From Chlamydiota bacterium (lineage in GTDB: Bacteria > Chlamydiota > Chlamydiia > Chlamydiales > SM23-39), in NCBI GenBank assembly GCA_027366035.1, contig DAHXLK010000017.1:8137-72136 (forward strand): DNA of 64,000 nt, read 5' to 3'. Both the position numbers and the translations under genes were made by a program. Positions 3,816 to 63,885 of this stretch are shown piece after piece (the first letter of the stretch is position 1; every line of letters starts with the position of its first letter). Under the pieces are notes generated by a model that was given only the letters and a program-made list of their open reading frames with translations, did not search any database and was not told where the DNA came from.

Positions 3816-4957
3816 GACTCGCTATCTAACTCATCTTCTAATTCTTCTAAAGCCTCTAAAAAAATATCCAACACATCTTGTTTGTGTTTATTGTTTCTAT
3901 AAAGTTTTGGGGCTACCTGTCTAATGGCATCCCTCATTTGGGTAAAAAGGATGATTTTTCCAATCGTTGTAGAGCTGACCCCTAAAAGGGAAGATATTTG
4001 TAAGATTTTATCTATGGAAACATATTTTTCTTGCAATAGTTTGAGAAACTGCTTTGCTAAAAGCTCAAAGGTTACGTCAGCAGGGGCTACTTGATGAAAA
4101 CTTAAAAACTGATTGTGAATCATCTTCATCCGAGATTCAAAAAAAGTGTAGACGCCTAGTATAGCTTGTAAAGTTCTGGTATCGCCTACTAATTTCTGTA
4201 ACTCGGGGCGTGAGATCGACGGCCCTTTTGATTTGATATCGCTGCCGAGCGAATGCAAAAAAAAGTCGACAACTGTCTTTAATTTTTCGAAAGGAAACTG
4301 GGAAAAGAGCTCTTGAAAGAGCTGCTGGGGATCTCTAGGAGAGCCGGTAATATCTCGGTACATATCGCGAAGGGCTGTCGGAGAACCAAGTCCTTTTGAG
4401 GAGAAGTCTAGCGCTTCTTGCTTAATGTTTCTTCCGGCCCGTATTTCCCTTCCATAAGATCGGTTGAAGGCATCTCTTGCTATCTGCAAGTTTTCTTGCA
4501 ACCTTCCTCCTGTCGTTTCAATTAAAAACTCTAGAGCTTCGTCAGCAAGAGAGTAGTCGGGGTAGATTTCTAGGACCTTAGCTAAAAGTGATTCGGGGGT
4601 ATCATTTTGAGATACCCTAGAAAGGAGGAGTTGTAAAGTTTTCGATTGAAACTCGGGATTACGGTCGGAAAATTTGGCAGCGGCATCTTCGGCTTGTTTT
4701 TTCTCTTCTACGATAACTTTGCCCTCTTCGCCATCGTCTTTTTTAGCTACTTTTGGTACCGGTTTTTCTTTTTGGAGCTCTTCTAAAGTTCTTTTAAGCA
4801 TTCCTGCCGGAAGGATCACCCCTTTATTTTCTACCCAATCCTCTAATTTCTCTCGGGAAGGAATTTGATTTGCGTTATGAGAATTTAGGGATTGTTTGGG
4901 AGCGATTTTTGTCGTTTTTATCATGGAATGGGGGATGGGGGTGGGCTGATCGACCAT
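3812..4957 (-). CDS. copN: T3SS gatekeeper SctW (CopN/LcrE family)
   Basis: 381-aa ORF immediately downstream of sctV. Size and position of chlamydial CopN. C-terminal helical HrpJ/YopN-like region. Confidence 0.8.
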   Translation of the reverse strand: MVDQPTPIPHSMIKTTKIAPKQSLNSHNANQIPSREKLEDWVENKGVILPAGMLKRTLEELQKEKPVPKVAKKDDGEEGKVIVEEKKQAEDAAAKFSDRNPEFQSKTLQLLLSRVSQNDTPESLLAKVLEIYPDYSLADEALEFLIETTGGRLQENLQIARDAFNRSYGREIRAGRNIKQEALDFSSKGLGSPTALRDMYRDITGSPRDPQQLFQELFSQFPFEKLKTVVDFFLHSLGSDIKSKGPSISRPELQKLVGDTRTLQAILGVYTFFESRMKMIHNQFLSFHQVAPADVTFELLAKQFLKLLQEKYVSIDKILQISSLLGVSSTTIGKIILFTQMRDAIRQVAPKLYRNNKHKQDVLDIFLEALEELEDELDSES

Positions 4958-9374: not shown

Positions 9375-9458
9375 AATGTTTTTAAGTTTATCATAGATTG
9401 CTATTTTTTAAAAATAGAATTAAAAATTTACTATTGGGTTTTATGAAAAGTCAGTAAA

Positions 9459-9624
9459 GGGACTGTTGCAATCTTTAGCTTTGCCGTTAAAATTTGAGCC
9501 TTGCAAAGTCGGTTTGATTTTTTTGAAAGCGACATATCCTACTAAGGTATAGGAACTTTTAAAAAAATCAAATTCGAAGAAGCAAGGGTAAAATTTTAAC
9601 TAACCGGGAGATTTCAACAGTCCC
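9459..9624 (+). repeat. Family-A element, copy A2
   Basis: Full-length alignment to A1. Flanked by the perfect direct repeat GTAAA (9454-9458 and 9625-9629). Confidence 0.9.
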
Positions 9625-9656: not shown

Positions 9657-9822
9657 GGGCTATTTTGATCTTCGCATAGCTTTTAAAATTTGAGCTTTGC
9701 AAGGCCGGTTTGATTTTTTTTTGAAAATGACATATCCTACCAAGGTATAGGCACTTTTAAAAAGATCAAATTCGGGAAAGCAAGGGTAAAATTTTAACCA
9801 AATGGGAGATTTCAACAGTCCC
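9657..9822 (+). repeat. Family-A element, copy A3 (left terminal repeat decayed)
   Basis: Aligns to A1/A2 from ttaaaatttgagctttgc to agatttcaacagtccc. The left end has degenerated to gggctattttgatcttc. It lies 32 bp after A2 and ends 1 nt before the ychF stop codon. Confidence 0.85.
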
Positions 9823-9823
9823 G

Positions 9824-10918
9824 TCATGCATGATAAAACAAAATAACATCTCCATCTTGGACGATATATTCTTTTCCTTCTGACCTAGCTTTACCTGCTT
9901 CTCTAGCTTGAACCCTTCCTTTATAGGTGATCATATCCGAATAGGAGATGACCTCTGCACGAATAAACCCTTTTTCGATATCGCTATGGATACAGCCGGC
10001 AGCTTGGCTAGCTGTCATTCCTTTTTGGATCGTCCACGCACGGGTCTCCATCTCTCCTGCAGTGATGAAGGTAACAAGTCCAAGGAGCTCAAAGGCTGCT
10101 TTGATAAGTCTATTCAGCCCAGTCTCTTCGAGGCCGATGCTGTGTAAAAATTCTTTGGCATCTGCCTCATGTAACTGGGCTATCTCTTCTTCTAATTTGG
10201 CTGAGAGGGGAATTATCTTATTCCCTTCTACGTTTGCATACTCTTGGACACGCCGCGTAAGAGGATTTTCCATGGAGGGAAGGTCGTTTTCGCTGACATT
10301 GGTCACATAGAGAATTTTTTTTAAGGTGAGAAAAGGATATTTTTTTGCGATTTTGGCTTCTTCCTCAGTGAACGAGAATTTTCGAAGGGAAAGATTTTGG
10401 TTGAGATGGGAGAGGATTTTAGTAAAAAGGGCATGTTCTGCCTCTAACTCTTTTTTCCCTTTCATCTGCTTGGCAAGGCGGAAGGTGATGTTTTCGGCCA
10501 TCTGCAGATCAGCTAAGATGAGCTCAAGATTGATAACTTCGATATCTTGGATTGGGTCGATCTCTTGCATGATATGTATGACTTTCTCATCTTCAAAACA
10601 TCGGACTACTTGGATAATGGCATCAGTTTCGCGGATATTGGCGAGAAACTGGTTTCCGAGCCCCTCTCCTTTCGACGCCCCTTTGACAAGCCCTGCGATA
10701 TCGACAAAGGTGACCGTAGCATAGACAATTTTTTTGCTCTTATGGAGGAGGGCCAACTGTTCTAGCCTAGGGTCGATGAGGTTGACAATGCCCAGGTTCG
10801 GGTCGATGGTGCAAAAAGGATAGTTTTCGGCAGCGACCTGTTTTTTGGTGAGGGCATTAAAGAGGGTCGACTTGCCCACGTTGGGAAGCCCTACGATACC
10901 ACAAGAGAGCTCTTTCAT
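9824..10918 (-). CDS. ychF: Ribosome-binding ATPase YchF
   Basis: 364-aa ORF. G1 motif GIVGLPNVGKSTLFNALT. C-terminal TGS-like domain (RAWTIQKGMTASQAAGCIHSDIEKGFIRAEV). Confidence 0.96.
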   Translation of the reverse strand: MKELSCGIVGLPNVGKSTLFNALTKKQVAAENYPFCTIDPNLGIVNLIDPRLEQLALLHKSKKIVYATVTFVDIAGLVKGASKGEGLGNQFLANIRETDAIIQVVRCFEDEKVIHIMQEIDPIQDIEVINLELILADLQMAENITFRLAKQMKGKKELEAEHALFTKILSHLNQNLSLRKFSFTEEEAKIAKKYPFLTLKKILYVTNVSENDLPSMENPLTRRVQEYANVEGNKIIPLSAKLEEEIAQLHEADAKEFLHSIGLEETGLNRLIKAAFELLGLVTFITAGEMETRAWTIQKGMTASQAAGCIHSDIEKGFIRAEVISYSDMITYKGRVQAREAGKARSEGKEYIVQDGDVILFYHA

Positions 10919-20608: not shown

Positions 20609-20693
20609 ACTCGTCTTAGCAAAATGTACAAAGTCGAGTGACCTTGCCCTCAAAAACTAGTCCGGTTGAGATTGGAGGTTTGTGATCTTTTTA

Positions 20694-20859
20694 GGGACTG
20701 TTTCGATTTCCCATTTGGTTAAAATTTTACCCCTGCTTCTTCGGATTTGACTTTTTTAAAAGTGCCTATACCTTAGTAGGATATGTCACTTTCAAAAAAA
20801 TCAAACCGACTTTGCAAGGCTCAAATTTTAACGGCAAAGCTAAAGATTTCAACAGTCCC
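20694..20859 (-). repeat. Family-A element, copy A4 (inverted orientation)
   Basis: Reverse complement aligns end to end with A2. gggactgtttcgatttcc...aaagatttcaacagtccc. Confidence 0.9.
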
Positions 20860-20899
20860 TTTTTGGGGGCAAGGTCAACATGCCGGGCGCACCTTTGAG

Positions 20900-25245: not shown

Positions 25246-25410
25246 GGGACTGTTGAAATCTCCCATTTGGTTAAAATTTTACCCTTGCTTCTCCGAATTT
25301 GATGCTTTTAAAAGTGCTTATACCTTGGTAGGATATGTCGCTTTCAAAAAAATCACACCGGCTTTGAAAGGTTCAAATTTTAACGGAAAAGCGAAGATCG
25401 AAACAGTCTC
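25246..25410 (-). repeat. Family-A element, copy A5 (inverted orientation, right terminus slightly decayed)
   Basis: gggactgttgaaatctcccatttggttaaaattttacccttgc...gaagatcgaaacagtctc aligns to the reverse complement of A2/A3. Confidence 0.88.
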
Positions 25411-26103: not shown

Positions 26104-26267
26104 TAGACTTCTTTCGAAACTCCATTTGCTCGCTAAAATTGTCCTTTTTGACAGCTTTGCCGCAAAATTTTTCAACCATGTGTTCAAACATGCTCTCAAA
26201 ATTTTGCTGCAAAGTTGTACAAAAATTGCTAATTTTATCAAACAAAGCGAGTTTCGAAAGAAGTCTA
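26104..26267. repeat. Family-B long-palindrome element, full copy B1
   Basis: 19-nt perfect terminal inverted repeats tagacttctttcgaaactc (26104-26122) / gagtttcgaaagaagtcta (26249-26267). The arms are imperfect inverted repeats around the centre caaccatgtgttcaaacatgctc. It fills the whole rpe-stop to yvcK-start gap. Confidence 0.85.
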
Positions 26268-37024: not shown

Positions 37025-37106
37025 GGGGGTGTCGCATAGTGGCAATTGCAAGAGACTGTAAATCTCTCGCCTTCGGGCTTCGTCAGTTCGAGTCTGACCG
37101 CCCCCA
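37025..37106 (+). tRNA. tRNA-Tyr (anticodon GTA), class II with long variable arm
   Basis: Acceptor gggggtg/cgccccc. Anticodon stem agaga/tctct with loop ctGTAaa. Variable arm cgccttcgggcttcg. T-arm gtcag-ttcgagt-ctgac. The 3' 24 nt overlap the recombinase ORF. Confidence 0.9.
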
Positions 37107-38570
37107 TTCTTCCGGACGATTCTTAAAGTCCAGCATCGTTAAGAACGGCTCTCTCACTGAAACTGAGAGACTTCCGTCCTTCAGTTGCAAGTTCTGAAAT
37201 ACTAAATCTAAAAGTTGACGTTTTTCATCCACTTCAGAACTCTCGAAGATCTTGCGAGCACGGGTTGCCAGGTTCATCACCAGGTTCGCCGTGATATAAA
37301 AGTTTAGATCGGCCTTTTCATGTCGCTTCATCTGATCCATGATCTCAGTTTGGCGACCTTTGTATGTCGTCACCCTTTCAAGGTACATCCGTTCGTCGAT
37401 GAGGCCGTCCAACTTGTCGTCATAGATTTGGTTGAGGCGTTTTTGAATGCGGTCTTGCTCTTTTCGTAGCGCTTGGAGGCTTTCCGAATGGAACAGAGCT
37501 TCTGATTCATGGATGCCCTTGAGATAACGCGTCACATCGGCGATCTGTTGTTCGGACAGAGAGATCCTATCAAAATAGGTTGATAAAGAAGCGATCAACG
37601 GCTCCTCGCGGACGTAGACCCTCTTGCAGTTACCCTTGGCATTCGTGCAGCTGTAGTAGATATAGCGTTCTTTTTTAATCTCTGGGGTTACGATACAGCC
37701 GCAATCGGAGCAGGTAATCAGACCGCGCAATACAAAAGGTTCGCTCACCGATTTGTGTGGTTTCTTATGATATCCATTGGCTACATCTTGCGCTCGTTGG
37801 TAGAGGTCTCGGGAAATGAGTGGTTGGTAGTGATGCTCGACGAGACCATATTTGGTTTGCATCATCCCCGAATAAAACGGTTTTTTGAGGATTTCATCAA
37901 TCACCGATTTAGCGATTTTATGCCCTTTTTTACTTCTGAACCCCATCCGCTCAGCCTCTTCTTGGAGTTTTAGCAGAGAGTAGTTGCCTGTTGCGTATAG
38001 CTCGAACAGTTTCGTGATGAATGGCGCGCGCTCGGGATCTGGAACGATTGTTTTGTCGCCATTTTCCTGCGCCACGTGCATGTAACCAAGAGGGGCTAGC
38101 CCAATCCAAATTCCATTTTTTGCTGCCTGCTCCTTGCTCCGTTTCACGTTATCGCTCAATTGGAGAACGTAACTTCTTGCGAACATTACTCCCATATCCC
38201 ATCTCAGGATGTCGGCGCTATTCGATTTGAGGTTCAAAACTAGTCCTTCGCGCATGAAATGGATTTCGACTTTGCCTTCTTTCCGGAGGTCCTCTAAGAC
38301 GACAGACTCTTTGAAGCTCCTCTGGACGCGATCAATCGTATCTGCGACAAGCGCGACAATTTCCTTGGATTTGTGAATCCGCTCGATGATCTTTTCGAAT
38401 TCCTTCCGTGTTTCCTTAGTCGAAGATTCGGTGATTTTAAAGACTTCCTCTATCTCCAACCCCCTGCGGGAGGCATACTCTCGCAAACGCCGTTCCTGGG
38501 CTGGAATAGACTGTCCTTCTTCTTGCTCTTTACTCGACACTCTGGCAAGCAGTATTGCTTTCATGGCCAA
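37083..38570 (-). CDS. Large serine recombinase (resolvase/invertase N-domain + recombinase domain + zinc ribbon + coiled coil)
   Basis: 495-aa ORF. N-terminal AILLARVSSKEQEEGQSIPAQ with the catalytic Ser. Zinc ribbon CSDCGCIVTPE...YYSCTNAKGNC. The last 8 codons (EEWGRSDSN) lie inside tRNA-Tyr. Confidence 0.9.
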   Translation of the reverse strand: MAMKAILLARVSSKEQEEGQSIPAQERRLREYASRRGLEIEEVFKITESSTKETRKEFEKIIERIHKSKEIVALVADTIDRVQRSFKESVVLEDLRKEGKVEIHFMREGLVLNLKSNSADILRWDMGVMFARSYVLQLSDNVKRSKEQAAKNGIWIGLAPLGYMHVAQENGDKTIVPDPERAPFITKLFELYATGNYSLLKLQEEAERMGFRSKKGHKIAKSVIDEILKKPFYSGMMQTKYGLVEHHYQPLISRDLYQRAQDVANGYHKKPHKSVSEPFVLRGLITCSDCGCIVTPEIKKERYIYYSCTNAKGNCKRVYVREEPLIASLSTYFDRISLSEQQIADVTRYLKGIHESEALFHSESLQALRKEQDRIQKRLNQIYDDKLDGLIDERMYLERVTTYKGRQTEIMDQMKRHEKADLNFYITANLVMNLATRARKIFESSEVDEKRQLLDLVFQNLQLKDGSLSVSVREPFLTMLDFKNRPEEWGRSDSN

Positions 38571-38603
38571 ACCTTTATTACTTCTTTTCGGGTCGCTATT
38601 ATA

Positions 38604-39194
38604 TCACTTTTCCTCTGACAAGTCCTCGACTAAATTTTGCGGAACAAAGCCAATTTGTGGTTCTTGGCTCTTTCTTTCAGACTGTAGTACCCTAAGCTCA
38701 GCAAGGGATCTGAAAAGGATTTTTTCCAAAGAAATTTCATACCTTGAGAGTAACGCCAATTCGTCTCCCTGGTATCCCCCAAGGACTTCGATAATCCCGC
38801 TACTATCGAATCTGCGTGAGGCATGGTTGATCAACATCGATTCCATCTGCGTGACCCTTGATAGTCGCCAAGCGGCGGCTAAAGCCCTTTCACAGAATAA
38901 CTGCTCAAGGAGTCCTTCAGGGATGAATTGTTCGTAAAATTCCGTCTTCAAAGCTTCAAATTCTTTTTTAGATTCTCCCTCCAACACTACTTGTCTGCTG
39001 AATACCCCATGTTTTAGAGGGTTCTTGGCAAGGGCTGACTTGCCTTCGATAGATTTTGGACCAGTTGATCGTTGGGCGTTCAGGCGGTTTGAATCTAACT
39101 GTTTTTGTGATGCCATATTTTGCTCCTGTTTCTCATTTCCGATTTCTGGATTTTCTATAGGAATCGGAAAATCGGAAAGGTGTGGATTGTTCAT
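38604..39194 (-). CDS. Hypothetical protein (196 aa) of the island
   Basis: ORF with a 4-nt overlap to the primase gene. The motif NRLNAQRSTGPKSIEGKSALAKNPLKHGVFS recurs, to my recollection, in uncharacterised integrase-linked proteins. No function can be assigned. Confidence 0.55.
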   Translation of the reverse strand: MNNPHLSDFPIPIENPEIGNEKQEQNMASQKQLDSNRLNAQRSTGPKSIEGKSALAKNPLKHGVFSRQVVLEGESKKEFEALKTEFYEQFIPEGLLEQLFCERALAAAWRLSRVTQMESMLINHASRRFDSSGIIEVLGGYQGDELALLSRYEISLEKILFRSLAELRVLQSERKSQEPQIGFVPQNLVEDLSEEK

Positions 39195-40909
39195 ATAAGT
39201 CCTTGTTCTTTAGCCTTTTTCTTTCTTGTTTCAACTTGAGATTTGCTCAACCCTGTGCGGCTAGCCGTCTGTTCGATCGTTAACCCCTCTTTAAGGGCCT
39301 GAGCTACCTTTTCGACTTCAGAATCAGTCTTTGGCTCAGCGATCTCCCAAAGCCAAAGCCCGTCGTCCTCTTCTGTTAGGCGGACTTGGAAAGGCGCAGC
39401 ATCGTCACCAGCAAAATGTCGTGTTTTTTCGAAGACGACCTCAAACGCAGCTCCTTGATCAGCGCAATGTCCAGGAGGCTGTTTTAAAGTAATGACGCAA
39501 TCGAGGATATCTTCCCTTTTGCTGGTGCCGCGTTGTTGACCCGTTTTTGCCGCATGGTGGATGAAGAGTACGGATTTCCCTTTTTTCCGAAGTTCTAGCG
39601 CCCAATCTTGCACGGGTTGCCAACTTTCAGCTTCATTTTCGATCCCACTGCGAAACAGGGTAGACACGTTGTCGATGATAATGAGATCGCTGTCAGCAAT
39701 CAAATCCTCCAAGATATCCCGCTCTTCTTTGATCGAAAGGTCTGGCATTGCGCCTTCTTGCAAATCGGGCGTGATCAGCCTGAGATAAGATGGATCTGGA
39801 AGTTTTAGGTCTTCTGAGAGAGAAATCCGTTGCAAGCGCTCCTGCATGGCCCCAGCGGGCATTTCCCCGTCAATGTATAAGACCTTTCTTGGCCTTGGCG
39901 CATTCCACTTTAGGAAAGACCCGCCAGTGGCAACAGCATAGGCAATCCCTAGAGCTACGTGAGTTTTTCCCACACCCCGTTTTGCGTACAAAAGGCATAA
40001 CCCTTGCGATGGAAGAAAGGGGGCAAGGATCATTTCCCTTTTCGGCAATTTCATTTGTAAAAACTCTTCTAGCGTGACTGCCCTGATTTTCGCTTTTGGG
40101 GTAGATGGGGAATAATCTGTCGTGGCAGCTAAAAGTTTAAGGAGAGAGTCTGTAGTGTTGCCTTCCGCAAGCCAATCGCTAACGTCCTTGCCGTGCGATT
40201 CTTGATATTCGATCCCAGGGAGATCTATTACGCGGAGGCGTTTGACTTTGCCGTAGAGAGTTTTACATAACAAATTTTTCCGTTCGATCCCAGTTTTGTC
40301 CATATCATAAAGAACGGCGACATCACAATTTCGTAGAACGGCAGTGAAATCGTCGGGCCACTTGAGTGATTCAGGAGTAGTGGTCGCCACAAGGCCGTAT
40401 TGGGCCAATTTGTCAGCATCCTTTTCTCCTTCGACCAGAAATACTGTGTTGCCCTCATGGGTCGCTTGTAAAACCTCCGGAAGTCGATAGAGGATTTTCC
40501 GGCACCCCTCAAGATTCCTCACGATTTCCCCTTTTTCGTTGAATCTTTCCCAGTAAAAGCTTTTTAGTTTTCCATTAAACCCAGGCTCGATTCGGATTTT
40601 TGAAAAGAGCGCTTTGCCTTGCTCGTCGCGATAGGGATATTCTATTCGCCTTTTGGCTGTTTCAGCCTCTTTACCGAGTTTCACGGGGAACAAGTCAGTG
40701 ATTGCAATACCTAGGGAAGCGCAAATGTTTTCAGGAACGCATCCAGCAAAACACTTAACGAGGATTTTTCCGTCATCGCCCTCGTTAATGGAAAGACTCG
40801 GATTAGAGTCGTCGTGGGAAGGGCATCGCAAGCTGTATCCATGTCCCGATTTCCGTGCTTCAAATCCTGTTTTTCTTTCGACTAGGCGAATAAATTCTTC
40901 GATCATCAT
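39191..40909 (-). CDS. Primase (CHC2 zinc finger + TOPRIM) fused to RecA-like AAA ATPase (RepA/AAA_25-type) with C-terminal HTH
   Basis: 572-aa ORF. Zinc finger CPSHDDSNPSLS...KCFAGC. TOPRIM VFLVEGEKDADKL and VLYDMDKTG. Walker A AKRGVGKTH. Walker B LIIIDNV. C-terminal LTIEQTASRTGLSKSQV. Confidence 0.85.
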   Translation of the reverse strand: MMIEEFIRLVERKTGFEARKSGHGYSLRCPSHDDSNPSLSINEGDDGKILVKCFAGCVPENICASLGIAITDLFPVKLGKEAETAKRRIEYPYRDEQGKALFSKIRIEPGFNGKLKSFYWERFNEKGEIVRNLEGCRKILYRLPEVLQATHEGNTVFLVEGEKDADKLAQYGLVATTTPESLKWPDDFTAVLRNCDVAVLYDMDKTGIERKNLLCKTLYGKVKRLRVIDLPGIEYQESHGKDVSDWLAEGNTTDSLLKLLAATTDYSPSTPKAKIRAVTLEEFLQMKLPKREMILAPFLPSQGLCLLYAKRGVGKTHVALGIAYAVATGGSFLKWNAPRPRKVLYIDGEMPAGAMQERLQRISLSEDLKLPDPSYLRLITPDLQEGAMPDLSIKEERDILEDLIADSDLIIIDNVSTLFRSGIENEAESWQPVQDWALELRKKGKSVLFIHHAAKTGQQRGTSKREDILDCVITLKQPPGHCADQGAAFEVVFEKTRHFAGDDAAPFQVRLTEEDDGLWLWEIAEPKTDSEVEKVAQALKEGLTIEQTASRTGLSKSQVETRKKKAKEQGLI

Positions 40910-40930
40910 TATTACCTCTTTATTAATTTG

Positions 40931-41200
40931 TTACGTCACATTCCCGAGTACTTTTTCTGCTTTTTCGCACACGACTTTTTCAATTTCTCTGCTCAACTCT
41001 TGGGTGGTGGGATGGCAAATTGTTTGACTTCCTTCCCCGATCCTCTTTGTGGGGTAAGTGATTCTGTAGCCAGAGCCGTCCCTTTTGCGATGGACTCCAA
41101 TTGAACTGACATAAAAACGTCCATCTAGCTCAACGCATGCGAACGCCATCAGCCCGTCTTGCGGGTGGATGGGAAGGATTTCCACTTTTGTGACTGCCAT
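40931..41200 (-). CDS. SpoVG-like small DNA/RNA-binding protein
   Basis: 89-aa ORF. The pattern V.KVEILPIHPQDGLMAFACVELDGRFYVSSIGVHRKRDGSGYRITYPTKR......ICHP parallels the SpoVG fold signature (V.V....G.lkAfasv.ld..f.v..i.v.....g.fv.mPs.r........HP). Confidence 0.45.
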   Translation of the reverse strand: MAVTKVEILPIHPQDGLMAFACVELDGRFYVSSIGVHRKRDGSGYRITYPTKRIGEGSQTICHPTTQELSREIEKVVCEKAEKVLGNVT

Positions 41201-41362
41201 AAAGCTCCGGATTGTTACGTCTGTCTATTCGAAGCAGCAGGTCAAAAAACTGTCCTAATCGATCTTCCGTAGAAGCCACGATAGGGGAAAGGGCAGACCT
41301 GTGCTTTTTCATACCCCCAAAATAATGGATCTGTTGCTCATGTGAGCGCATTTGCACGCAAG

Positions 41363-41402
41363 TGCGACTGGATCAGAATTTTTTGAGATAAAATGCGACT
41401 GG
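41363..41402. promoter_or_regulatory. Pair of 9-bp direct repeats TGCGACTGG spaced 31 bp apart in the divergent intergenic region of the island
   Basis: tgcgactgg at 41363-41371 and 41394-41402, about 80-115 bp upstream of the 475-aa gene start. Possible operator or iteron. Confidence 0.3.
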
Positions 41403-41479
41403 TGTATGCTAGAGTTAGACAGCAACCGATACTTTTTAGCCTGAGGCGCGATCTAAAAATGTAATAAGGAAGTGAAAAA

Positions 41480-42907
41480 ATGAGTCTCGCAGTCAGTCAA
41501 TCTTTGCTTTTGCTGAATTGTCTAGAACGATTCGAAAAGCAGTCTAAAGAAATCCAACATAGGAATGAGCTTGTCGAGTTATTTTGCACTCAGGTCATTC
41601 CTTTCCTCACCGAGAACGGACTCCTTGATGCTCTACGTAAGAATTGGGCGCGTCAACGGGATCAGATGAATTTAAGGGTGAGGGAAACTGAAGCCAAAGC
41701 CCTAGAAGAAATACAAGCAACGGCTGATGAAATACGATTAGCCGTCGGCGTTTGCTCAGATGAAGTTATTAAGGCAAAGCAAGAGTTGATCCAACGCCTT
41801 ATATCAGGTGAAGAGAAATGGTATGGCACGCCGCTTTATCGAATCCTCTTTGGTGAACTGAAGCAGCTTCTTCAATGTTTATTAGAAGCTGGGCATGAGC
41901 ACATTTGCGTCAAATATGCGAAATTAGGAGTTCGTAGGATCTATGTTCAGCGAGAGAATCCAATCAAACGATGGATGATTATTCGCAATGGAGGACAGAA
42001 CGGAATTCCTCTCACTGCAAAAGAAGCTGCAAATGCCAAGAAAAAGGGCGAGAAGGGTCTTGTTTCCTTTTACTCCGATCTCGAGTTGGTTGAAGAAACT
42101 TTCATCGAGGAATTCTCATTCGCGCCAAGCGTTCTGGACGCGTATGAGGCAATGGATTCCGTACATTGGGATCGTTTTCAAGATCCAGCCGTCGTCTGGT
42201 GGTATTTTGAAACGGCCTTTTGGTATTGGAAGACAACGGAGTTTTATTTCAACGAGATCCTGCGTCCGAAAAATGGCAATGATCTTGGAAAGCACTTTCA
42301 GACAACTTGTGAACAAGCGACATGGCGTGAAATCGCTGATGCAAGGGATAGAGTTAACGACGCAAGCAGGATTCCTGTGATTTTTACAACAGGGTTTTTT
42401 AGAACAGGGCTTCGTACGTTGGCTAACGCTATTGCTGTTTATCTTTCTCAAGATCCGACAACTTTGGAAGCCTCGCCTCACAAAATAAATGATTCCCTAA
42501 CGCATTTTGAGCTTGTTCTCGATGGCAATGAATTATGGGTACATGTCTCTTTTGAGAATCAAGCAATCGAAAAATTCTTTGTCCAAAAATTCAACGAAGG
42601 GCCAGATCTTACTGGATCCCGACTTCACCAATTTGCAAAAGGACTTGTAGAAGATCCCGTTGAAGGAACTAAGAAAGCAAAATTAGTTCGAAAATGGGAA
42701 TCTGCGTCAAAGCATATTAATCGTTTGAAATTACCGATGCTTCTAAAGCAAAAGTTTTTTGCTAAATCGTATAGTTCTCATTTCGATTTTAAGGGGGCAA
42801 GAATATCGCTAGGGAGCGATCTGAATGAAGTTAGGCTGATCCTAAAAGATTTGAGGCAGAATCATTTAAAATCTAAGGAACGGGTTGAAAATGGGAAAGA
42901 TGGATGA
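41480..42907 (+). CDS. Hypothetical protein (475 aa), first gene of the R-M-containing cassette
   Basis: Long ORF with an AAGGAAG SD-like sequence upstream. Its 3' end overlaps the methyltransferase ORF by 23 nt. I recognise no domain. Confidence 0.6.
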   Translation: MSLAVSQSLLLLNCLERFEKQSKEIQHRNELVELFCTQVIPFLTENGLLDALRKNWARQRDQMNLRVRETEAKALEEIQATADEIRLAVGVCSDEVIKAKQELIQRLISGEEKWYGTPLYRILFGELKQLLQCLLEAGHEHICVKYAKLGVRRIYVQRENPIKRWMIIRNGGQNGIPLTAKEAANAKKKGEKGLVSFYSDLELVEETFIEEFSFAPSVLDAYEAMDSVHWDRFQDPAVVWWYFETAFWYWKTTEFYFNEILRPKNGNDLGKHFQTTCEQATWREIADARDRVNDASRIPVIFTTGFFRTGLRTLANAIAVYLSQDPTTLEASPHKINDSLTHFELVLDGNELWVHVSFENQAIEKFFVQKFNEGPDLTGSRLHQFAKGLVEDPVEGTKKAKLVRKWESASKHINRLKLPMLLKQKFFAKSYSSHFDFKGARISLGSDLNEVRLILKDLRQNHLKSKERVENGKDG

Positions 42908-43922
42908 GAAGAGAAACACGCCGGACAAGAGAATGAAGGTCGTCGATCTTTTTTGCGGATGTGGAGGATTGTCTTTAGGATTTCAAAACGCTGGCTTTGA
43001 AATATTAGCGGCCTATGATGCATGGGATACTGCTATAGAATGCTATAAAGAGAATTTTCATCATCCTGCTTCTTGTTTAGATCTTTCAGCAGTGGATCAT
43101 GCGATCGCCGAGATCAGACAGTGGAATTGTGATATTATCATAGGAGGCCCGCCATGTCAGGATTTTTCTCATGCTGGGAAACGGCAAGAAGGCGCTCGGG
43201 CTAATCTTACTACATGCTTTGCCAAGATTGTGTCTGCGATAAAGCCCGCATGGTTTGTAATGGAAAACGTTGATAGGGCGATTACAAGCGCTTCTTATGC
43301 ACAAGCAAGGAATATTTTTCTGAACGCTGGATATGGGATTTCAGAATTAGTCCTTGATGCTAGCTTTTGTGGCGCTCCCCAGAAGAGGAAACGGTTATTT
43401 TGCATAGGAAGATTAGGAGAAGAAAACGAATTTATAGTAGAACGCATTCAAAAAAGAATGAGCAAGAAACCGATGACAGTTCGTGAACATTTAGGGAGTG
43501 AGCTTGGAATAGAGCATTACTATAGGCACCCGAGAAACTACAATCGGAGAGCAGTATTCTCAATTGATGAACCTTCTCCAACTATTAGAGGCGTAAATCG
43601 GCCCATACCTATGGGGTATCCAGGACATGCGCAAGATTCTGCTCCTATTGATTCTTTGATTCGTCCTTTGACTTCTCTGGAAAGGGCTAGAATTCAAACA
43701 TTTCCAGTCGATTATAAATGGGTAGGATCAAAAACTGAACAGGAAACCATGATAGGCAATGCGGTTCCAGTAAAGTTGGCTGAGTTCGTTGGGCGATCCA
43801 TATTAGACGAGAATTGCAATCAAGGGAACGCGAGAAGATTATCTTTTAGCTCATCTCCTGAAAACCATATCGTAACTTTTGCTAAATCAGCACGGTGCGA
43901 ACAGCTATCCTTCAGGCTTTAG
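42885..43922 (+). CDS. DNA (cytosine-5)-methyltransferase
   Basis: Motif I DLFCGCGG, IV GGPPCQDFS, VI ENV, VIII QKRKRLF, X GNAVP. The true start may be the Met at 42900 or 42933 (MKVVDLFCGCGG). Confidence 0.93.
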   Translation: MKMGKMDEKRNTPDKRMKVVDLFCGCGGLSLGFQNAGFEILAAYDAWDTAIECYKENFHHPASCLDLSAVDHAIAEIRQWNCDIIIGGPPCQDFSHAGKRQEGARANLTTCFAKIVSAIKPAWFVMENVDRAITSASYAQARNIFLNAGYGISELVLDASFCGAPQKRKRLFCIGRLGEENEFIVERIQKRMSKKPMTVREHLGSELGIEHYYRHPRNYNRRAVFSIDEPSPTIRGVNRPIPMGYPGHAQDSAPIDSLIRPLTSLERARIQTFPVDYKWVGSKTEQETMIGNAVPVKLAEFVGRSILDENCNQGNARRLSFSSSPENHIVTFAKSARCEQLSFRL

Positions 43923-43928
43923 AGCAAT

Positions 43929-45050
43929 ATGACAGACTTTAAAGATACAGATCCTAAATTATACGGCATTAATCATTCAAATCGTGATGGAGATGATCTG
44001 TGGGGGAAAAACCAATTTAATAGCACGTTTCCTGTTGCTCTTATGTGTTTTATGCGGGATCAACAGGTTCCTGCTGCATATTTGTCTATCACAAAGAAAC
44101 TGAACGTATCTGTTTCTGAAATATCATTCGACCAAGTTTTAGATACAAATATTCCGAACAAGGATCTTTATTTTCTTTTTGAGGGGAAATTTGATCCTTA
44201 TCAAGATTTTGCGTACGATGACATAGGATCAATTGATCTTGTTGTAACTGAGAGCGTTCGTGATTCAGCAGCTCGATCGTACGGATCAATGCCTGGTCGT
44301 TTTTTAAGACCGCTGGAGATAAAACTCACGGTCGTACCCGATCATACTACGCATAAAGAGCTAGAGCGACTTTGGGGACCCGAACTTGTTATCCGACCTG
44401 CTACCACAATCTACTGCGCACTAGGAATCGCCCACTCTTGCAAGACAGCAAAAGTCCTAGGAAAGGTCAGAGCCATTTTTGAGCCTCTTTGCCATTCTAT
44501 AAAGGATTGGGATAACGAACATGAAATTAATGCAAGGGTTGACGACATTTTAGAGTCCTTGGATCGGTTTCAATCTGAAATGTGGCAACTGCAAAAACCT
44601 ATGTTGATGCAGCCTATCTGGAAAACGGAAGGGAAAAGTCCTATTTTGATGAAGAATGCGTTTGATATTTTTATCTGGAGCGATTTTGCTTTATGCCGAT
44701 TATTTCTCGATTTGTCGAGAGGAGGAGCCGAACGGAAAGAGGTCAACCGATTTGTAAGAAGCGCTGCACGTCTTGCAAGATTTTTATATGAAGTTTCTAC
44801 TAGGGGCAAAGTGAACGTGAAGAACATTTATACTGAAATGGCGCACAATAGGCAGACGGATAAGGAATTCGCAGTCAGCGGGAAAAAAACGCATTCTTAT
44901 ATGAGCTCAAAATATTTGTCGAACCCAAGAATCCAGAGAGATGCATTACGTCACATTATCCTCAATGGAGGGGAGCAAAAATTAAATCCCGAAAGGCGCT
45001 TTGACCAGACAGTCTATTTTACGACCAAACACATTTTTGAAAGCTCGTAA
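43929..45050 (+). CDS. Putative type II restriction endonuclease (PD-ExK type), cognate to the adjacent methyltransferase
   Basis: 373-aa ORF starting 6 nt after the MTase and abutting vsr. Candidate catalytic motif SIDLVV...PLEIKLT (D...ExK). Specificity is not determinable. Confidence 0.6.
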   Translation: MTDFKDTDPKLYGINHSNRDGDDLWGKNQFNSTFPVALMCFMRDQQVPAAYLSITKKLNVSVSEISFDQVLDTNIPNKDLYFLFEGKFDPYQDFAYDDIGSIDLVVTESVRDSAARSYGSMPGRFLRPLEIKLTVVPDHTTHKELERLWGPELVIRPATTIYCALGIAHSCKTAKVLGKVRAIFEPLCHSIKDWDNEHEINARVDDILESLDRFQSEMWQLQKPMLMQPIWKTEGKSPILMKNAFDIFIWSDFALCRLFLDLSRGGAERKEVNRFVRSAARLARFLYEVSTRGKVNVKNIYTEMAHNRQTDKEFAVSGKKTHSYMSSKYLSNPRIQRDALRHIILNGGEQKLNPERRFDQTVYFTTKHIFESS

Positions 45051-45506
45051 ATGGATGTCTTTTCCAAGAAGAAAAGAAGCGAAATCATGTCAAAAGTCAG
45101 GGGGAAGGACACCGCCCCTGAGATCAAAGTACGGAAATCTCTTTTCGCCCTGGGTTTTAGATACAGGCTAAATGTTCGAAAGATCCCTGGGAAGCCGGAT
45201 ATCGTGCTGCGTAAATACGAAGCGTTGATATTCGTCCATGGTTGTTTCTGGCACGGCCATCATTGTCGGATTGGTAATTTACCGGTAAGTAATAGCGCCT
45301 ACTGGCAACGCAAAATGGAAAGGAACAGAGCCAGAGACAAGATGAACCTTAAGCGTTTAAGGATGATGGGTTGGAGGGTCTTAACGGTTTGGGAATGCGC
45401 CTTAGCCGGTAAGGGGAGATTGCCGTCGGATCTCCTATCTAGGAAGCTGAATACATGGATCGTGGGAAGCAGACAGGTCGGTAATATTCAAGGGTTAAAG
45501 AATTGA
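45051..45506 (+). CDS. vsr: Very-short-patch repair endonuclease Vsr
   Basis: 151-aa ORF. DTAPEIKVRKSLFALGFRYRLNVRKIPGKPDIVLRKYEALIFVHGCFWHGHHC is the Vsr signature. Confidence 0.92.
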   Translation: MDVFSKKKRSEIMSKVRGKDTAPEIKVRKSLFALGFRYRLNVRKIPGKPDIVLRKYEALIFVHGCFWHGHHCRIGNLPVSNSAYWQRKMERNRARDKMNLKRLRMMGWRVLTVWECALAGKGRLPSDLLSRKLNTWIVGSRQVGNIQGLKN

Positions 45507-45553
45507 TTGGTTTGTTTGCGAGTCTGAAATATTAATTCATCTTCTTTTTAATT

Positions 45554-46303
45554 ATGCGCGCGTTTTATTCTTTTAGCATGAAAAAAATTAGTCGTTCAAA
45601 AATTGATTTGTTTTTGTCTTGCCCTTGTTGTTTTTATTTGGATCAGCTTTGTAAGGTCTCTCGTCCTTCCATACCAAAGTTTACGATCAACGATGCTGTT
45701 GATGGGTTGCTCAAGAAAGAATTTGATGTTTATCGTAATGCAGGCAAGCCTCATCCGTTGATGAGCCAATTCGCAATCGATGCGGTTCCCTTTCAACACC
45801 CAGATATTGAAAAATGGCGTAAAAATAAAATTGGCATCCAAGTTTCACATGAAGCGACCTCGTTCTTGGTTTACGGGGCTATTGACGATGTCTGGGTTGA
45901 TAAAACTGGGACGCTCTACATTGTGGATTACAAGGCCACCAGCATTAAGGATATTCCGACTCTGGATGGGCGAGATGCCTATAAAAGGCAAATAGAAGTT
46001 TACCAGTGGCTTTTTCGTCAAAATGGCTTCAAAGTGTCCAACACAGGGTATTTCGTCTACTGCAATGGGAAAAAAAATGCAGAATCCTTCAACGGACGGA
46101 TTGATTTTGATATGCAGATTTTGTCTTATGAGGGCGATGTTTCGTGGGTAGAGCCGACGCTGTTTAAGATCCGTTCGGCCATGGATGCACAGGAAATACC
46201 TGTTTCTTCAGAGCATTGCGAATATTGCGCTTTCCGCGAAGAAGGTGTAGCTGTACTACGCGAGAGAACTCAATCCGTTTTTCCCGTAAGTTTGACAACC
46301 TAA
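45554..46303 (+). CDS. PD-(D/E)XK nuclease, Cas4/RecB-like with Cys cluster
   Basis: 249-aa ORF. GAIDDVWVDKTGTLYIVDYKAT (D...DYK). N-terminal SCPCCFY and C-terminal EHCEYCAF cysteines resemble a Cas4-type Fe-S cluster. Confidence 0.7.
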   Translation: MRAFYSFSMKKISRSKIDLFLSCPCCFYLDQLCKVSRPSIPKFTINDAVDGLLKKEFDVYRNAGKPHPLMSQFAIDAVPFQHPDIEKWRKNKIGIQVSHEATSFLVYGAIDDVWVDKTGTLYIVDYKATSIKDIPTLDGRDAYKRQIEVYQWLFRQNGFKVSNTGYFVYCNGKKNAESFNGRIDFDMQILSYEGDVSWVEPTLFKIRSAMDAQEIPVSSEHCEYCAFREEGVAVLRERTQSVFPVSLTT

Positions 46304-46387
46304 TATTTTAACATTTAATAATTTAGACTGTAATGCATCAAATCCTTTTGAGAAACGTTCCCAATCAAAAGTTCTGAATTCGTCCAG

Positions 46388-46545
46388 TCGCCCCCATTTC
46401 TGGCTTTGGGGAGAATTTCCCGTTTTTTTTCAGGTTCTTTTGAAAAACTCTCCTCGGCAAGCTTATCAAAGCTTGCCCACGTCGTAGTTTTTCAAAATTA
46501 CCTGAAAAAATTCCGAGAACTTCCCCCCAAATCCCTCATGGGGGC
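46388..46545. repeat. About 158-bp imperfect palindrome whose two tips copy the tRNA-Tyr 3' end (cgcccccat / atgggggcg)
   Basis: Centre ggcaagctt-atca-aagcttgcc (46455-46476). The arms align as inverted repeats (tttttcaaaa, cctgaaaaaa and ccccaaa blocks) out to 46388 and 46545. Confidence 0.75.
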
Positions 46546-46582
46546 GGTCTCGCCTCCATTTTCTAACTAGCGAAGGCAAGTT

Positions 46583-46774
46583 CTATAAAATATGGATCAC
46601 ACTTGTGACAACTCCAAGAATATGAAAATTCATCTGGCTTGAAATATCGAGTGGAGAAAAAGCATCATTTTCTGCAAGAAGTCGGATTTTATTTTTCTCG
46701 ATATGCAAACGTTTTACAGTAAACTCACCATTCACTGTGGCAATGACAACTTTTCCGTGTTGAGGTTCTACTAC
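46583..46774 (-). pseudogene. umuD: UmuD/LexA-type S24 peptidase, C-terminal fragment only
   Basis: HGKVVIATVNGEFTVKRLHIEKNKIRLLAENDAFSPLDISSQMNFHILGVVTSVIH parallels E. coli UmuD [20 protein letters not shown]...[25 protein letters not shown]. The Ser-containing N-terminal half is missing. Confidence 0.7.
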
Positions 46775-47002
46775 AATTTTCCATGAACTGCAATAATAAA
46801 CATTTAAAAATCCGAAGAAGACCGTGTCCTTAATATAAGGATTATCATTTTCCAATTTCTTGAGTTTTTTCTCGACTGATTTGAACGATCAAATCTTAGC
46901 AAATTTACGATAGTTGTGGTTTTCGGGTACTAAATCTTCTAACCAAATAATTTCAGCTTGTTGAATGGAACCCTTCTTAAAAAACAGAAAATTGTAAAAC
47001 AT
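46775..47002 (-). pseudogene. Remnant of an IS5/IS1182-type transposase N-terminus (InsH_N-like), with an in-frame stop, fused to the umuD fragment
   Basis: The minus-strand translation reads MFYNFLFFKKGSIQQAEIIWLEDLVPENHNYRKFAKI*SFKSVEKKLKKLENDNPYIKDTVFFGFLNVYY. The L.DLVPE.H.YRK block is typical of this transposase N-domain. Confidence 0.35.
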
Positions 47003-47016
47003 CCTTGAAAAGGATT

Positions 47017-47050
47017 CCAGATTTCAACAGTCCCCTTTTGGAGGCAAGAT
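47017..47050. repeat. Isolated right end of a family-A element plus conserved flank
   Basis: ccagatttcaacagtcccc ttttggaggcaagatc matches the right end and flank of copy A4 (aaagatttcaacagtccc tttttgggggcaaggtc, 20842-20876). The rest of the element is absent. Confidence 0.7.
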
Positions 47051-47066
47051 CATATTGCATAATGTC

Positions 47067-47471
47067 TCAGATTAACTCTAAAGATTTTTGTTTTATTTTA
47101 AGGATTATTTGAGAAAGTCCGTTTGCTCGATTCATGGAGAGGCTGGAGTATATTTTTAAGTCATTTAAAAGTTTTGGTTGAAGGATAAGGATTTCCTTTA
47201 AAGGTTTTCCATTATAGATCAAGATCAAAATATATAGGAGACCCGCAGAAATAAGGGAGTTAGAAGATCCTTCGAAATAAATATTGTCTTTTTCTTTATA
47301 AGCGTGGAGGTGGACGATACTTTGACAGCCGGGGACTTGGTAGAAAGGGGTTTTGTAGATATCGGCAAGAGGGGGGAGGAGCCGGCCTAATTCGATAATT
47401 TTAGAGTAGGTCGCTTCTTTAGTGGTGCAATTTTGAAAAAGGGAATGTAATTTTTGAATCTTTTCTTCCAT
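47067..47471 (-). CDS. sufE: Cysteine desulfuration protein SufE
   Basis: 134-aa ORF. YQVPGCQSIVHL active-site Cys motif and SufE-like length. Confidence 0.85.
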   Translation of the reverse strand: MEEKIQKLHSLFQNCTTKEATYSKIIELGRLLPPLADIYKTPFYQVPGCQSIVHLHAYKEKDNIYFEGSSNSLISAGLLYILILIYNGKPLKEILILQPKLLNDLKIYSSLSMNRANGLSQIILKIKQKSLELI

Positions 47472-58800: not shown

Positions 58801-60033
58801 GAAAATAGGACATTAGAAGAGTATAAAAAACTTCTCAATATGAAATCGATCGAACCGCTACAAACTTTTAACCTCGAACTAGGTACAAAGATTTTTCTCT
58901 CAGACGGAGCTAAAGTTTCTAAGGGGCAGAAATTGGGAGAATGGGAGCAGCACTCTAGTCCTATCATTTGCGAACGTCCCGGTTATGTCAGATATGATGA
59001 CCTTGTCGAAGGGATCTCTACTCAAAAAGAGATCAATAAGCAGACAGGGCAGGTCGAATTGATTGTCAAACAACACCGAGGAGAGCTCCATCCTCAAATT
59101 GCTATCTATGCCGACTCCCATTATTCGGAGTTGATCGGTACCTACGCGATCCCTTCCGGAGCATCGATTTCAGTGAAGGAGGGACAGCATGTGAAAGTAG
59201 GTATGATCCTTGCCAAACTTTCTAGAGGAGCTATTAAGACAAGAGATATTACCGGAGGTCTTCCCCGTGTCGCCGAGCTTTTCGAAGCTAGGCGACCTAA
59301 AGAGGCTGCTGAAATTGCTAAAATCGACGGTATTGTCGATTTCAAAGGGGTCCAAAAGAACAAGAGGATTTTAGTGGTTAAAGATGAGGTTTCCGGAATG
59401 GAAGAAGAACACCTCATCCCACTTACAAAACATTTGATCATTCAGCGTGGCGATCATGTCGTCAAAGGGCAGCAGCTCACCGAGGGGCTTATCGTCCCGC
59501 AGGAGATTCTCGAAGTCTGCGGCGTTCGCGAATTACAGAAATATATGGTCAACCAGGTTCAAGAAGTCTATCGTCTCCAAGGTGTTGACATCAACGATAA
59601 ACACATCGAAATTATCGTCCGTCAGATGTTGCAGAAGGTGAAGGTTATTGACCCCGGTGACACCACTTTTCTCTATGGGGAAAATGTCGATAAGAAACGG
59701 TTTCATCAATTGAATACTAAGACATTAGGAGAAGGAGGCAAGCCTGCCCAGGCAGCGCCTGTCCTATTAGGTATCACTAAAGCTTCTTTGGGTACCGAGT
59801 CGTTTGTCTCTGCGGCCTCTTTTCAAGAGACAACCCGTGTCCTTACCGATGCGGCTAGTGAAGGAAAGACCGATTATCTCCTTGATTTTAAGGCCAACCT
59901 TATTATGGGGCATATGATTCCCGGTGGTACTGGCTATGAATACCATAAGAAGGTGAAGAAGTTTGTCGACCGTGAGCTGGAAGAAGAGCTCATCTTTGAT
60001 TTTGGCGAAAAGCATGAGGAATCCTTAGTTTAA
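55855..60033 (+). CDS. rpoC: DNA-directed RNA polymerase subunit beta'
   Basis: 1392-aa ORF. Zinc motif CACGKYKK...CDRCGVEV. Catalytic NADFDGDQM. Confidence 0.99.
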
Positions 60034-60198
60034 GGGATTGTTGAAATCTCCGCTTTGCCGTTAAAATTTGAGTCTTGCAAAGCCGGTTTAATTTTTTTGA
60101 AAGTGACATATCCTACTAAGGTATAGGCTCTTTTAAAAAGATCAAATCCGAGGAAGCAAGAGTAAAATTTTAATCAAACGGAAGATCGAAACAATCTT
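60034..60198 (+). repeat. Family-A element, copy A6 (termini slightly decayed)
   Basis: gggattgttgaaatctccgctttgccgttaaaatttgagtcttgc...ggaagatcgaaacaatctt. Starts at the nucleotide after the rpoC TAA. Confidence 0.88.
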
Positions 60199-60424: not shown

Positions 60425-60591
60425 AGGTTCCTCCTTTTAACATGAATTATTGGCTCTAATTTAACCAATAATGATGATGTCATTTTAATGCAACAAATTC
60501 ATAAAAATTTTTTTCTGTTTTATTAGAAATAGGTATTTATAAAAGGCTTAAAAATTAAGGGTAACCAAAAACTCTGTGTGCTTTTCATACA

Positions 60592-60758
60592 GGGACTGTT
60601 GAAATCTCCGCTTTGCCGTTAAAATTTGGGCCTTGCTTCCCCGGATTTTATCTTTTTAAAAGTGCCTATACCTTAGTAGAGGATATGTCACTTTCAAAAA
60701 AATCAAACCGACTTTGCAAGGCTCAAATTTTAACCAAATGGGAGGTCGAAACAGTCCC
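60592..60758. repeat. Family-A element, copy A7: outer arms in plus orientation, inner core (60637-60715) inverted
   Basis: The outer parts match A1 collinearly (gggactgttgaaatctccgctttgccgttaaaatttgggccttgc ... gcaaggctcaaattttaaccaaatgggaggtcgaaacagtccc). The segment between the 18-nt inner inverted repeats matches the reverse complement of the A1 core. Confidence 0.88.
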
Positions 60759-60788
60759 TTTATACTCGAGAGCGCCATCCGGAGATTT

Positions 60789-63710: not shown

Positions 63711-63872
63711 GGGACTGTTTCGATCTTCCATTTGGTTAAAATTTTACCCTTGCTTCCCCGGAGTTGATCTTTTTCAAGCGCCTATACCTTAGTAGGATAT
63801 GTCACTTTCAAAAAAATCAAACCGGCTTTGCTAGGCTCAGATTGTAACCAAATGGGAGATCGAAACAGCCCC
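63711..63872 (-). repeat. Family-A element, copy A8 (core in minus orientation; mosaic subterminal modules)
   Basis: gggactgtttcgatcttccatttggttaaaattttacccttgc...gctaggctcagattgtaaccaaatgggagatcgaaacagcccc. Both subterminal 9-mers are of the ccaaatggg type. Confidence 0.85.
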
Positions 63873-63885
63873 TTTTTAGAGGGAT

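Follow-up and report, generated by a model that had tools for sequence, protein, structure and literature searches.

ICE/IME-CIME accretion produces tandem arrays and decayed remnants at a single attachment site (Pavlovic 2004 and Bellanger 2011, as cited in PMC5704250). The locus described here resembles such arrays, as they are outlined in PMC5704250, in that copies of the target 3' end mark the junctions, a functional island adjoins decayed material and the integrase gene lies beside the target. It differs from them in that the arrays, as far as that outline goes, have direct repeats only, whereas here we find one inverted copy and a 153-bp full-length palindrome without recognisable element arms. 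The ssrA islands of Dehalococcoides, with their CcrB-like serine recombinase, are likewise similar: a small RNA gene has attL at its 3' end with a reverse-strand recombinase gene beside it, a direct repeat of that 3' end is found at the far boundary with a conserved island-side motif just upstream of it, and there are many tandem islands and remnants (PMC3146451). A relative of the present island (L046) is also located at a tmRNA gene. Inverted repeats of the target end are not described for the Dehalococcoides islands, and their hosts and cargo differ from those found here (PMC3146451).

Palindromes of other kinds also offer points of comparison with this locus. Inverted duplication, or quasipalindrome extension, by template switching in replication is a general mechanism. 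Its products share with the present palindrome a short perfect central hairpin, arms in which neighbouring unique DNA is repeated in inverted orientation, and a single, locus-specific copy; here, however, the arms are 24% diverged in a blockwise and transversion-rich manner and a direct copy of the attachment core abuts the end. ERIC-like and MITE-like repeats, including a family of about 165 bp that is resident in this DNA, are also palindromes of about 150-170 bp that are imperfect over the whole unit and lie between genes, but the palindrome studied here is present in one copy, is unlike the resident family and has the tRNA/att core as its tips. The attP site of the CTX phage folds as single-stranded DNA, its two inverted dif-like sites pairing in a hairpin of about 150 nt that is used by the XerCD tyrosine recombinases through single-strand exchange, whereas a serine recombinase cuts both strands. 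Our palindrome and CTX attP are alike in forming an imperfect hairpin, about 150 nt long, with a base that would restore the chromosomal attachment core as a duplex; the difference is that ours is chromosomal, is outside the island and is associated with a serine recombinase, with nothing pointing to single-stranded DNA.

The window, by which we mean the whole 64-kb stretch of DNA that was analysed, from an uncultured member of the Chlamydiota as judged by the names of recombinase homologues, has the gene order tRNA-Thr, tRNA-Tyr, island, palindrome, relic S24-peptidase gene, repeat fragment, sufE, infA, tRNA-Thr, tuf. The features of the island and its target are as follows.

37025-37106, plus strand: tRNA-Tyr (GTA), the integration target (ARAGORN; Rfam tRNA, 54 bits).
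37083-38570, minus strand: large serine recombinase gene, 495 aa, its last 8 codons drawn from the tRNA-Tyr 3' end (Pfam; the C-termini of homologues run into tRNA sequence).
37108-46388, no strand assigned: integrative island, 9.3 kb (ORFs, Pfam, core repeat and comparison with related islands).
46361-46388, plus strand: island-side arm of attR (P arm), CCAATCAAAAGTTCTGAATTCGTCCAGT, which mimics the tRNA T-arm and acceptor (motif in related loci; alignment A2).

Neither the island nor its attachment sites are out of the ordinary; they belong to a known kind, in which a serine-recombinase island occupies a tRNA 3' end. A recombinase with three domains (Pfam Resolvase, 6.9e-15; Recombinase, 1.2e-11; Zn_ribbon_recom, 1.6e-08) adjoins the target gene and overlaps tRNA-Tyr with its 3' end; it has more than 2000 homologues, and those that are named come from Chlamydiota. 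The core CGCCCCCAT at the tRNA-Tyr 3' end (37099-37107) is the present attL and is repeated directly, as CGCCCCCAT(T), at 46389-46397, where the island-side arm that is conserved among related islands comes to its end. From the CGTCC...GGACG symmetry of the reconstructed attP, the crossover would fall at CC inside GCCCCCAT. Excision at that position would be expected to yield an attB reading ...GTCTGACCGCCCCCAT|TTCTGGCTTTGGGG and an attP reading ...TTCGTCCAGTCGCCCCCAT|TCTTCCGGACG.

The genes of the island are those for the recombinase, a 196-aa unknown, primase/AAA_25, SpoVG-like, a 475-aa unknown, C5 methyltransferase, HindVP-type endonuclease, Vsr and PD-(D/E)XK nuclease. Its cargo at 42885-46303 comprises, by Pfam, a restriction-modification module (C5 methyltransferase, HindVP-type endonuclease and Vsr mismatch endonuclease) followed by the nuclease, which is PD-(D/E)XK/Cas4-like. 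The reading frame of the recombinase crosses the attachment site (37083-38570 on the minus strand with 46280-46397 on the minus strand): the integrated gene ends ...EEWGRSDSN* in tRNA-Tyr sequence at 495 aa, and in the reconstructed circular form it would run on through ...EEWGRLDEFRTFDWERFSKG... to 534 aa. Homologues of the recombinase are annotated with tails of translated tRNA (WGRLDSNQRRP...). At each target used by the recombinase family in loci L031-L087, which are tRNA-Tyr, Met, Leu, Asn, Gln, Asp, Ala and Arg together with tmRNA, the 3' end of the recombinase gene is fused to the 3' end of the target.

Related loci were collected by scanning metagenome contigs with an alignment of recombinase homologues, which gave 80 loci, and exact look-ups added more. 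In 14 of the fetched loci the far end of the island has ATGGGGGCGnnTGGACGnATTCAGAACT or a version of this motif that suits a different target gene, and directly past the core the flanks diverge; these loci include a short-read contig identical to the window (L023), leaving 13 besides. The attR arm in the window fits the family consensus perfectly. When six islands were aligned in tRNA orientation (alignment A2) they proved near-invariant over CCAGTCAAAAGTTCTGAAnnCGTCCAnnCGCCCCCA, up to CGCCCCCA, and unrelated immediately after it. The five relatives in this comparison share the island-side arm, have unrelated flanks, and in no case (0/5) carry the palindrome. Island similarity thus stops exactly at the core, and the palindrome is host-side DNA rather than island DNA; judged by this comparison, everything rightward from 46398 is not island DNA. 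The degenerate tRNA-like stretch at 46361-46388 was missed by the initial annotation as what it is, the conserved island-side arm and not a decayed copy of the host tRNA. In one relative (L024, 2030-2140, minus strand) the island abuts only the 3' half of tRNA-Tyr, with no full tRNA called there, and its end, TCCAGTCGCCCCCAT, has 15 nt in common without a difference with the window's island-side arm (compared with 46375-46397), which implies that the window arm mimics a tRNA-Tyr variant from another host.

What follows the core varies among the relatives. It is a plain terminator hairpin in four of them (L077, L035, L050 and L103) and a set of short direct repeats in L031. In L046 a second recombinase gene stands in series at the tmRNA gene (3560-3790), a true tandem, and in L026 (about 2000-2280) and L028 (about 4600-4900) the island is followed directly by an element whose first gene encodes a tyrosine integrase. 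The likeness of CGCCTCCAT-TTTCTAACTAGC, just to the right of our palindrome, to the L026 junction CGCCCCCAC-TTTCTTAACTAGC was set aside because L028 differs at the same place. The related island L019, at tRNA-Tyr (700-935; GCA_964594545.1, CAZQNB010000003.1), is flanked by a palindromic insert: the order is CCGCCCCCAT, 205 nt with two hairpin units of about 70 nt, ATTGGGGGC-AA-GCCCCCAT, and then a relic recombinase 3' end (tblastn E = 3.5e-8). Its cores are laid out direct / inverted / direct, as in the window, with an unrelated interior sequence; elsewhere in the island family this layout was seen in L019 alone.

The palindrome and the core copy to its right are made up as follows.

46389-46464, plus strand: left arm, the host-side flank of attR (repeat detection, blastn, arm alignment).
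46389-46397, plus strand: core copy D1, CGCCCCCAT, which is both the attR core and the left tip (identical to 37099-37107; island similarity ends there).
46456-46477, no strand assigned: perfect central hairpin GGCAAGCTT-ATCA-AAGCTTGCC (from the sequence; 9-bp stem, 4-nt loop).
46469-46549, plus strand: right arm, an inverted copy of the left arm (repeat detection, blastn, arm alignment).
46538-46549, minus strand: core copy I, GACCGCCCCCAT, 12 nt that repeat the tRNA-Tyr 3' end exactly and in inverted orientation (blastn, 12/12 to 37107..37096).
46551-46559, plus strand: core copy D2, CGCCTCCAT, 8/9 against the core and in direct orientation (scan for close inverted-direct core pairs).

The initial annotation described a 158-bp stretch that folds back on itself, and repeat detection, blastn, shuffling and RNA folding all bear this out. 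We place the imperfect palindrome at 46389-46549, with 61 matches, 18 mismatches and 6 gap columns in a global alignment of the arms; repeat detection gave arms at 46389-46449 and 46486-46546. Its symmetry is far above chance: the local self-reverse-complement score was 111, against 17.9 +/- 3.9 (maximum 33) in 300 shuffles, and blastn of the region against its own reverse complement gave 76% identity over 163 columns. Folded as RNA, the palindrome reaches -79 kcal/mol (z = -9.6) on the plus strand and -95 kcal/mol (z = -11.4) on the minus strand, energies and z scores being listed in the order plus, then minus. The central hairpin contributes a fold of -14.2 kcal/mol on the plus strand and -17.4 kcal/mol on the minus strand. 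Its two AAGCTT (HindIII) sites are present as previously described, but the centre lies one base to the right of the 46455-46476 given for it before.

Comparison of the region with itself and with tRNA-Tyr, which had been proposed as a check, recovered by blastn both the palindrome and its two tRNA-like tips. The left tip does copy the tRNA-Tyr acceptor end directly (CGCCCCCAT at 46389-46397 equals 37099-37107). The claim that the right tip mimics the tRNA end on the other strand, with a 4-nt gap, was equally accurate: ATGGGGGCGGTC (46538-46549) agrees at 12 of 12 positions with the reverse complement of tRNA-Tyr 37096-37107, and across a 4-nt gap the next four bases, CGAG, also fit the tRNA. 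The core part of this copy is 46538-46546, so that the exact match extends beyond it. Deeper into tRNA-Tyr the likeness is weak (anchored alignment, p about 0.007-0.02), with a GCCTTCG 7-mer at the right distance, and a search of the right flank for a longer inverted half of tRNA-Tyr gave no match to the tRNA model. The third core copy, D2, had been overlooked. Together I and D2 form a 9-bp stem with the loop GTCT followed by TTTT (-15.2 kcal/mol, z = -3.1), and we put at about 0.002 the probability that an 8/9 core would turn up within 20 nt by chance. Tested as a third copy of the trailer, the sequence after D2 was not significantly like that after D1 (p = 0.08). None of the other tRNAs in the window has an inverted copy of its own end downstream.

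Mismatches between the arms are clustered in blocks, and 14 of the 18 are transversions; wobble bias, looked for as a sign of strand-specific RNA structure, was absent (2 vs 2). The best-kept block, TTTTTTCAGGTnnTTTTGAAAAACT, has 23 of 25 positions the same in both arms. Within 40 nt of the core the left arm has a weak hairpin and a T8 run (46407-46430), detected as a terminator pattern, the hairpin having z = 0. In a search of the window against Rfam 15 only tRNAs passed the gathering score, so that the palindrome matches no family there; 46300-47100 gave only sub-threshold, generic hairpin matches to miRNA precursor models.

To the right of the palindrome lie the remains of a gene, a repeat fragment and then the first intact host gene.

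46583-46771, minus strand: relic umuD, the C-terminal 62 residues and stop only (Pfam Peptidase_S24; homologues are named DNA polymerase V subunit).
47019-47052, no strand assigned: end fragment of the repeat of about 165 bp (34 nt, 91% identical to 20844-20877).
47067-47471, minus strand: sufE, the first intact host gene on the right (Pfam SufE).

The umuD relic has 66% identity to residues 94-155 only of a 155-aa homologue (tblastn), the N-terminal catalytic part having gone. In relatives umuD is followed by umuC, and tblastn did not find umuC anywhere in the window. A umuD relic without umuC marks the palindrome's right edge as a boundary created by rearrangement or deletion. With umuC and most of umuD lost and a third, degenerate core present, the neighbourhood appears to be a decaying rearrangement hotspot. 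As for the intact genes beyond it, exact look-ups of SufE and IF-1 returned the same organism only, and the best non-self match to SufE is only 48% identical, the databases containing no close relative of this host.

Most likely the palindrome is a scar left by a single structural event, on the host side of the attachment site at the island's right end. Its origin we tentatively ascribe to an old inverted duplication of the tRNA-Tyr end and its trailer, later parted from the tRNA by integration of the island. Before the island arrived, the left arm, as the putative native trailer, would have followed directly after tRNA-Tyr. An inverted duplication may then have copied the trailer and with it the final 12 nt of the tRNA, or perhaps 16, and a template switch in replication, or a fold-back, at a small hairpin containing AAGCTT is the likely mechanism. 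The product would have read ...GACCGCCCCCAT-arm-loop-arm-ATGGGGGCGGTC, and its arms would subsequently have drifted apart to about 76% identity. Integration of the island at CC inside GCCCCCAT would later have split the tRNA from its old trailer.

The right tip bears on the order of these events: ahead of the core it has the GAC of the tRNA (GAC-CGCCCCCAT) where the island arm has AGT (AGT-CGCCCCCAT). Copying thus seems to have preceded the present island, at a time when tRNA and left arm were still contiguous; the order of events hangs on just these three extra matches, which have a chance of 1/64. The duplication account is further supported by the relatives in which the core is followed by a plain terminator hairpin, since the left arm in the window likewise has a hairpin and T8. 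Counting against it are the arm mismatches, whose transversion-rich, blockwise pattern is unlike simple drift of a duplicate by point mutation, the position of D2 beside the inverted tip, which a plain fold-back duplication does not explain, the parallel in L019, which hints at something recurrent rather than a one-off, and the weakness of the left-arm hairpin (z = 0).

If the duplication account is true, the first 20 nt or so of the left arm would be the host half-site of attR that is used in excision. The rest of the palindrome would probably be no more than a transcription stop between the island and the convergent relic genes, with the weak hairpin and T8, the 9-bp central hairpin, and the 9-bp I-D2 hairpin with UUUU as candidate stop elements. 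As the scar of an attachment site the palindrome is unusual; nothing points to a function, and no second copy was found where we searched. Under the duplication account it would be a well-resolved example of the decay of a tRNA integration hotspot beside relic genes and repeat fragments, useful for setting correct island boundaries in chlamydial metagenome-assembled genomes and not a new mechanism.

The main alternative, possible but unlikely, is that the palindrome is a miniature accretion remnant bounded by cores, like a cis-mobilizable element. The 153 bp or so enclosed by D1 and D2 would be all that decay has left of an earlier element integrated at the tRNA-Tyr core; the present island would have entered the regenerated tRNA end, and the palindromic shape would derive from both ends of the old element or from a later fold-back. 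Accretion followed by decay is an established route to arrays (PMC5704250, PMC3146451), and tandem arrays are common at such sites in relatives (L046, L026, L028 and L019). In L019 the core layout is the same and the second direct core precedes a relic recombinase 3' end, and the unit in the window has a direct core on either side, D1 (9/9) and D2 (8/9). The initial annotation had proposed an attachment-site remnant inverted by accretion, and much of this stands, in that the attR core forms the left tip, an inverted tRNA end forms the right, and tandem accretion does occur in relatives. The part that fails is that accretion gave the inversion: nhmmer found no recognisable second island arm inside the palindrome, and site-specific accretion gives direct repeats, so that an inverted copy needs another mechanism. 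Accretion thus leaves both the inverted core and the full-length symmetry unexplained. Moreover, D1 is an exact flanking site, but D2, at 8/9, lacks a recognisable island-side arm, with no CGTCC motif at the right distance, and the absence of significant similarity between the sequences after D2 and D1 also speaks against the remnant. Neither nhmmer with a recombinase 3'-end profile nor tblastn with the recombinase C-terminus detected an interior derived from a recognisable integrative element, although the same tblastn finds the relic in L019, and neither arm is like the arms of the island family or a recombinase 3' end. The arms had been considered as relics of a recombinase 3' end by analogy with L019 and L046; tblastn was negative in the palindrome and the nhmmer profile gave E = 0.48 in a 1.4-kb search.

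It is rather improbable that the palindrome is a selected RNA or DNA structure, either a bidirectional terminator or insulator or the source of a long hairpin RNA from the minus strand. The very stable folds on both strands, the three terminator-like sub-elements, the location between convergent genes and the high conservation of some arm blocks, TTTTTTCAGGTnnTTTTGAAAAACT among them, would all suit such a role. A terminator, however, needs neither 158 bp nor a copy of a tRNA end, and the gene on the right is a pseudogene. The even split among wobble mismatches, the lack of homologues of the palindrome from which covariation could be read and the lack of an Rfam family, with only sub-threshold matches of the miRNA-precursor type, also argue against selection on structure.

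That the palindrome is a working part of the recombination system we regard as a distant prospect. The inverted tip and its arm would then be a second, head-to-head host half-site or an accessory binding platform, which would let the recombinase invert DNA, integrate either way or control excision. The inverted site does copy 12 nt on the tRNA side and, with about 70% agreement, the first 20 nt on the trailer side, and the island looks intact, with an attR arm that agrees perfectly with the family consensus. In large serine recombinases a non-palindromic crossover dinucleotide imposes one orientation, and the crossover CC suggested by the symmetry of attP is not palindromic; nothing inverted was seen at the site. 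The recombinase-binding structure put forward earlier is not supported by comparison with the related islands: similarity among the six ends at the core, and the other five have the same arm with unrelated flanks and no palindrome, an absence that argues against a family-wide role in binding the recombinase.

Equally slight is the prospect that the 153-bp unit enclosed by the direct cores D1 and D2 represents a tiny non-autonomous passenger residing inside serine-recombinase attachment sites in Chlamydiota. Fold-back of the unit would rebuild a duplex tRNA-Tyr core from D1 and the inverted tip, and the island recombinase could carry or move it. The different palindromic insert in L019 would be a second example, and the total is two examples only. 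Were the direct / inverted / direct layout to prove recurrent, it would point to small palindromic elements, or recombinase-driven rearrangements, that are specific to attachment sites.

The copy number of the palindrome was assessed in several collections. No second copy was found in the 64-kb window and 9.8 kb more of the source contig, obtained from an 84.6-kb metagenome contig (ERZ27233573 k141_863314), which makes about 74 kb, nor in about 1 Mb of related loci. The search for further copies that had been called for is in this way answered for 74 kb of contig and the related loci. A 20-base pattern kept in both arms gave only 17 single chance matches in the species-representative (GTDB) genomes, the source genome not being among the matches, and 4 chance matches in viral contigs (IMG/VR), where a pattern from the centre gave 0; BLAST against plasmids and phages gave no match to the palindrome. 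A short-read Logan contig passes unbroken through the palindrome, whereas another of that run breaks off within the abundant repeat. This repeat, itself palindromic and about 165 bp long, occurs at least 8 times in 64 kb; the copies are 85-91% identical and have ends like GGGACTGTTGAAATC.

1692-1858, 9458-9624, 9683-9826, 20693-20860, 25246-25408, 60032-60193, 60591-60760 and 63711-63875: copies of the repeat of about 165 bp.

The two palindromic families A and B that the initial annotation had kept apart are one and the same, this repeat, and are unrelated to the palindrome: 46389-46549 has no similarity to the repeat, which was itself absent from all the related loci fetched. That the palindrome belongs to a third dispersed family finds no support, given its single copy in the window and the additional 9.8 kb and its absence from the collections searched. 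A dispersed palindromic repeat or MITE that landed at the island boundary by chance is thus very unlikely, for although such elements thrive here and the resident unit is of similar size, there is one copy in 74 kb of contig, a short-read contig spans it, there is no target-site duplication outside its tips, and its left "terminal repeat" is the attR core itself, a 9-nt coincidence with a sequence that every island of the family needs. The inverted tip, moreover, shares in the symmetry with the attR core, so that the event that made the palindrome copied the core, which in itself makes the chance landing of a mobile element very unlikely.

Two minor features of the surrounding DNA may be recorded. 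The window has another unique imperfect palindrome at 26145-26224, its 37-nt arms being 78% complementary and 6 nt apart. Upstream of the window on the source contig (L104, 17249-21384) lie a gene for an IS4-type DDE transposase and a gene for a protein with a NEL domain, an E3 ligase-like effector.
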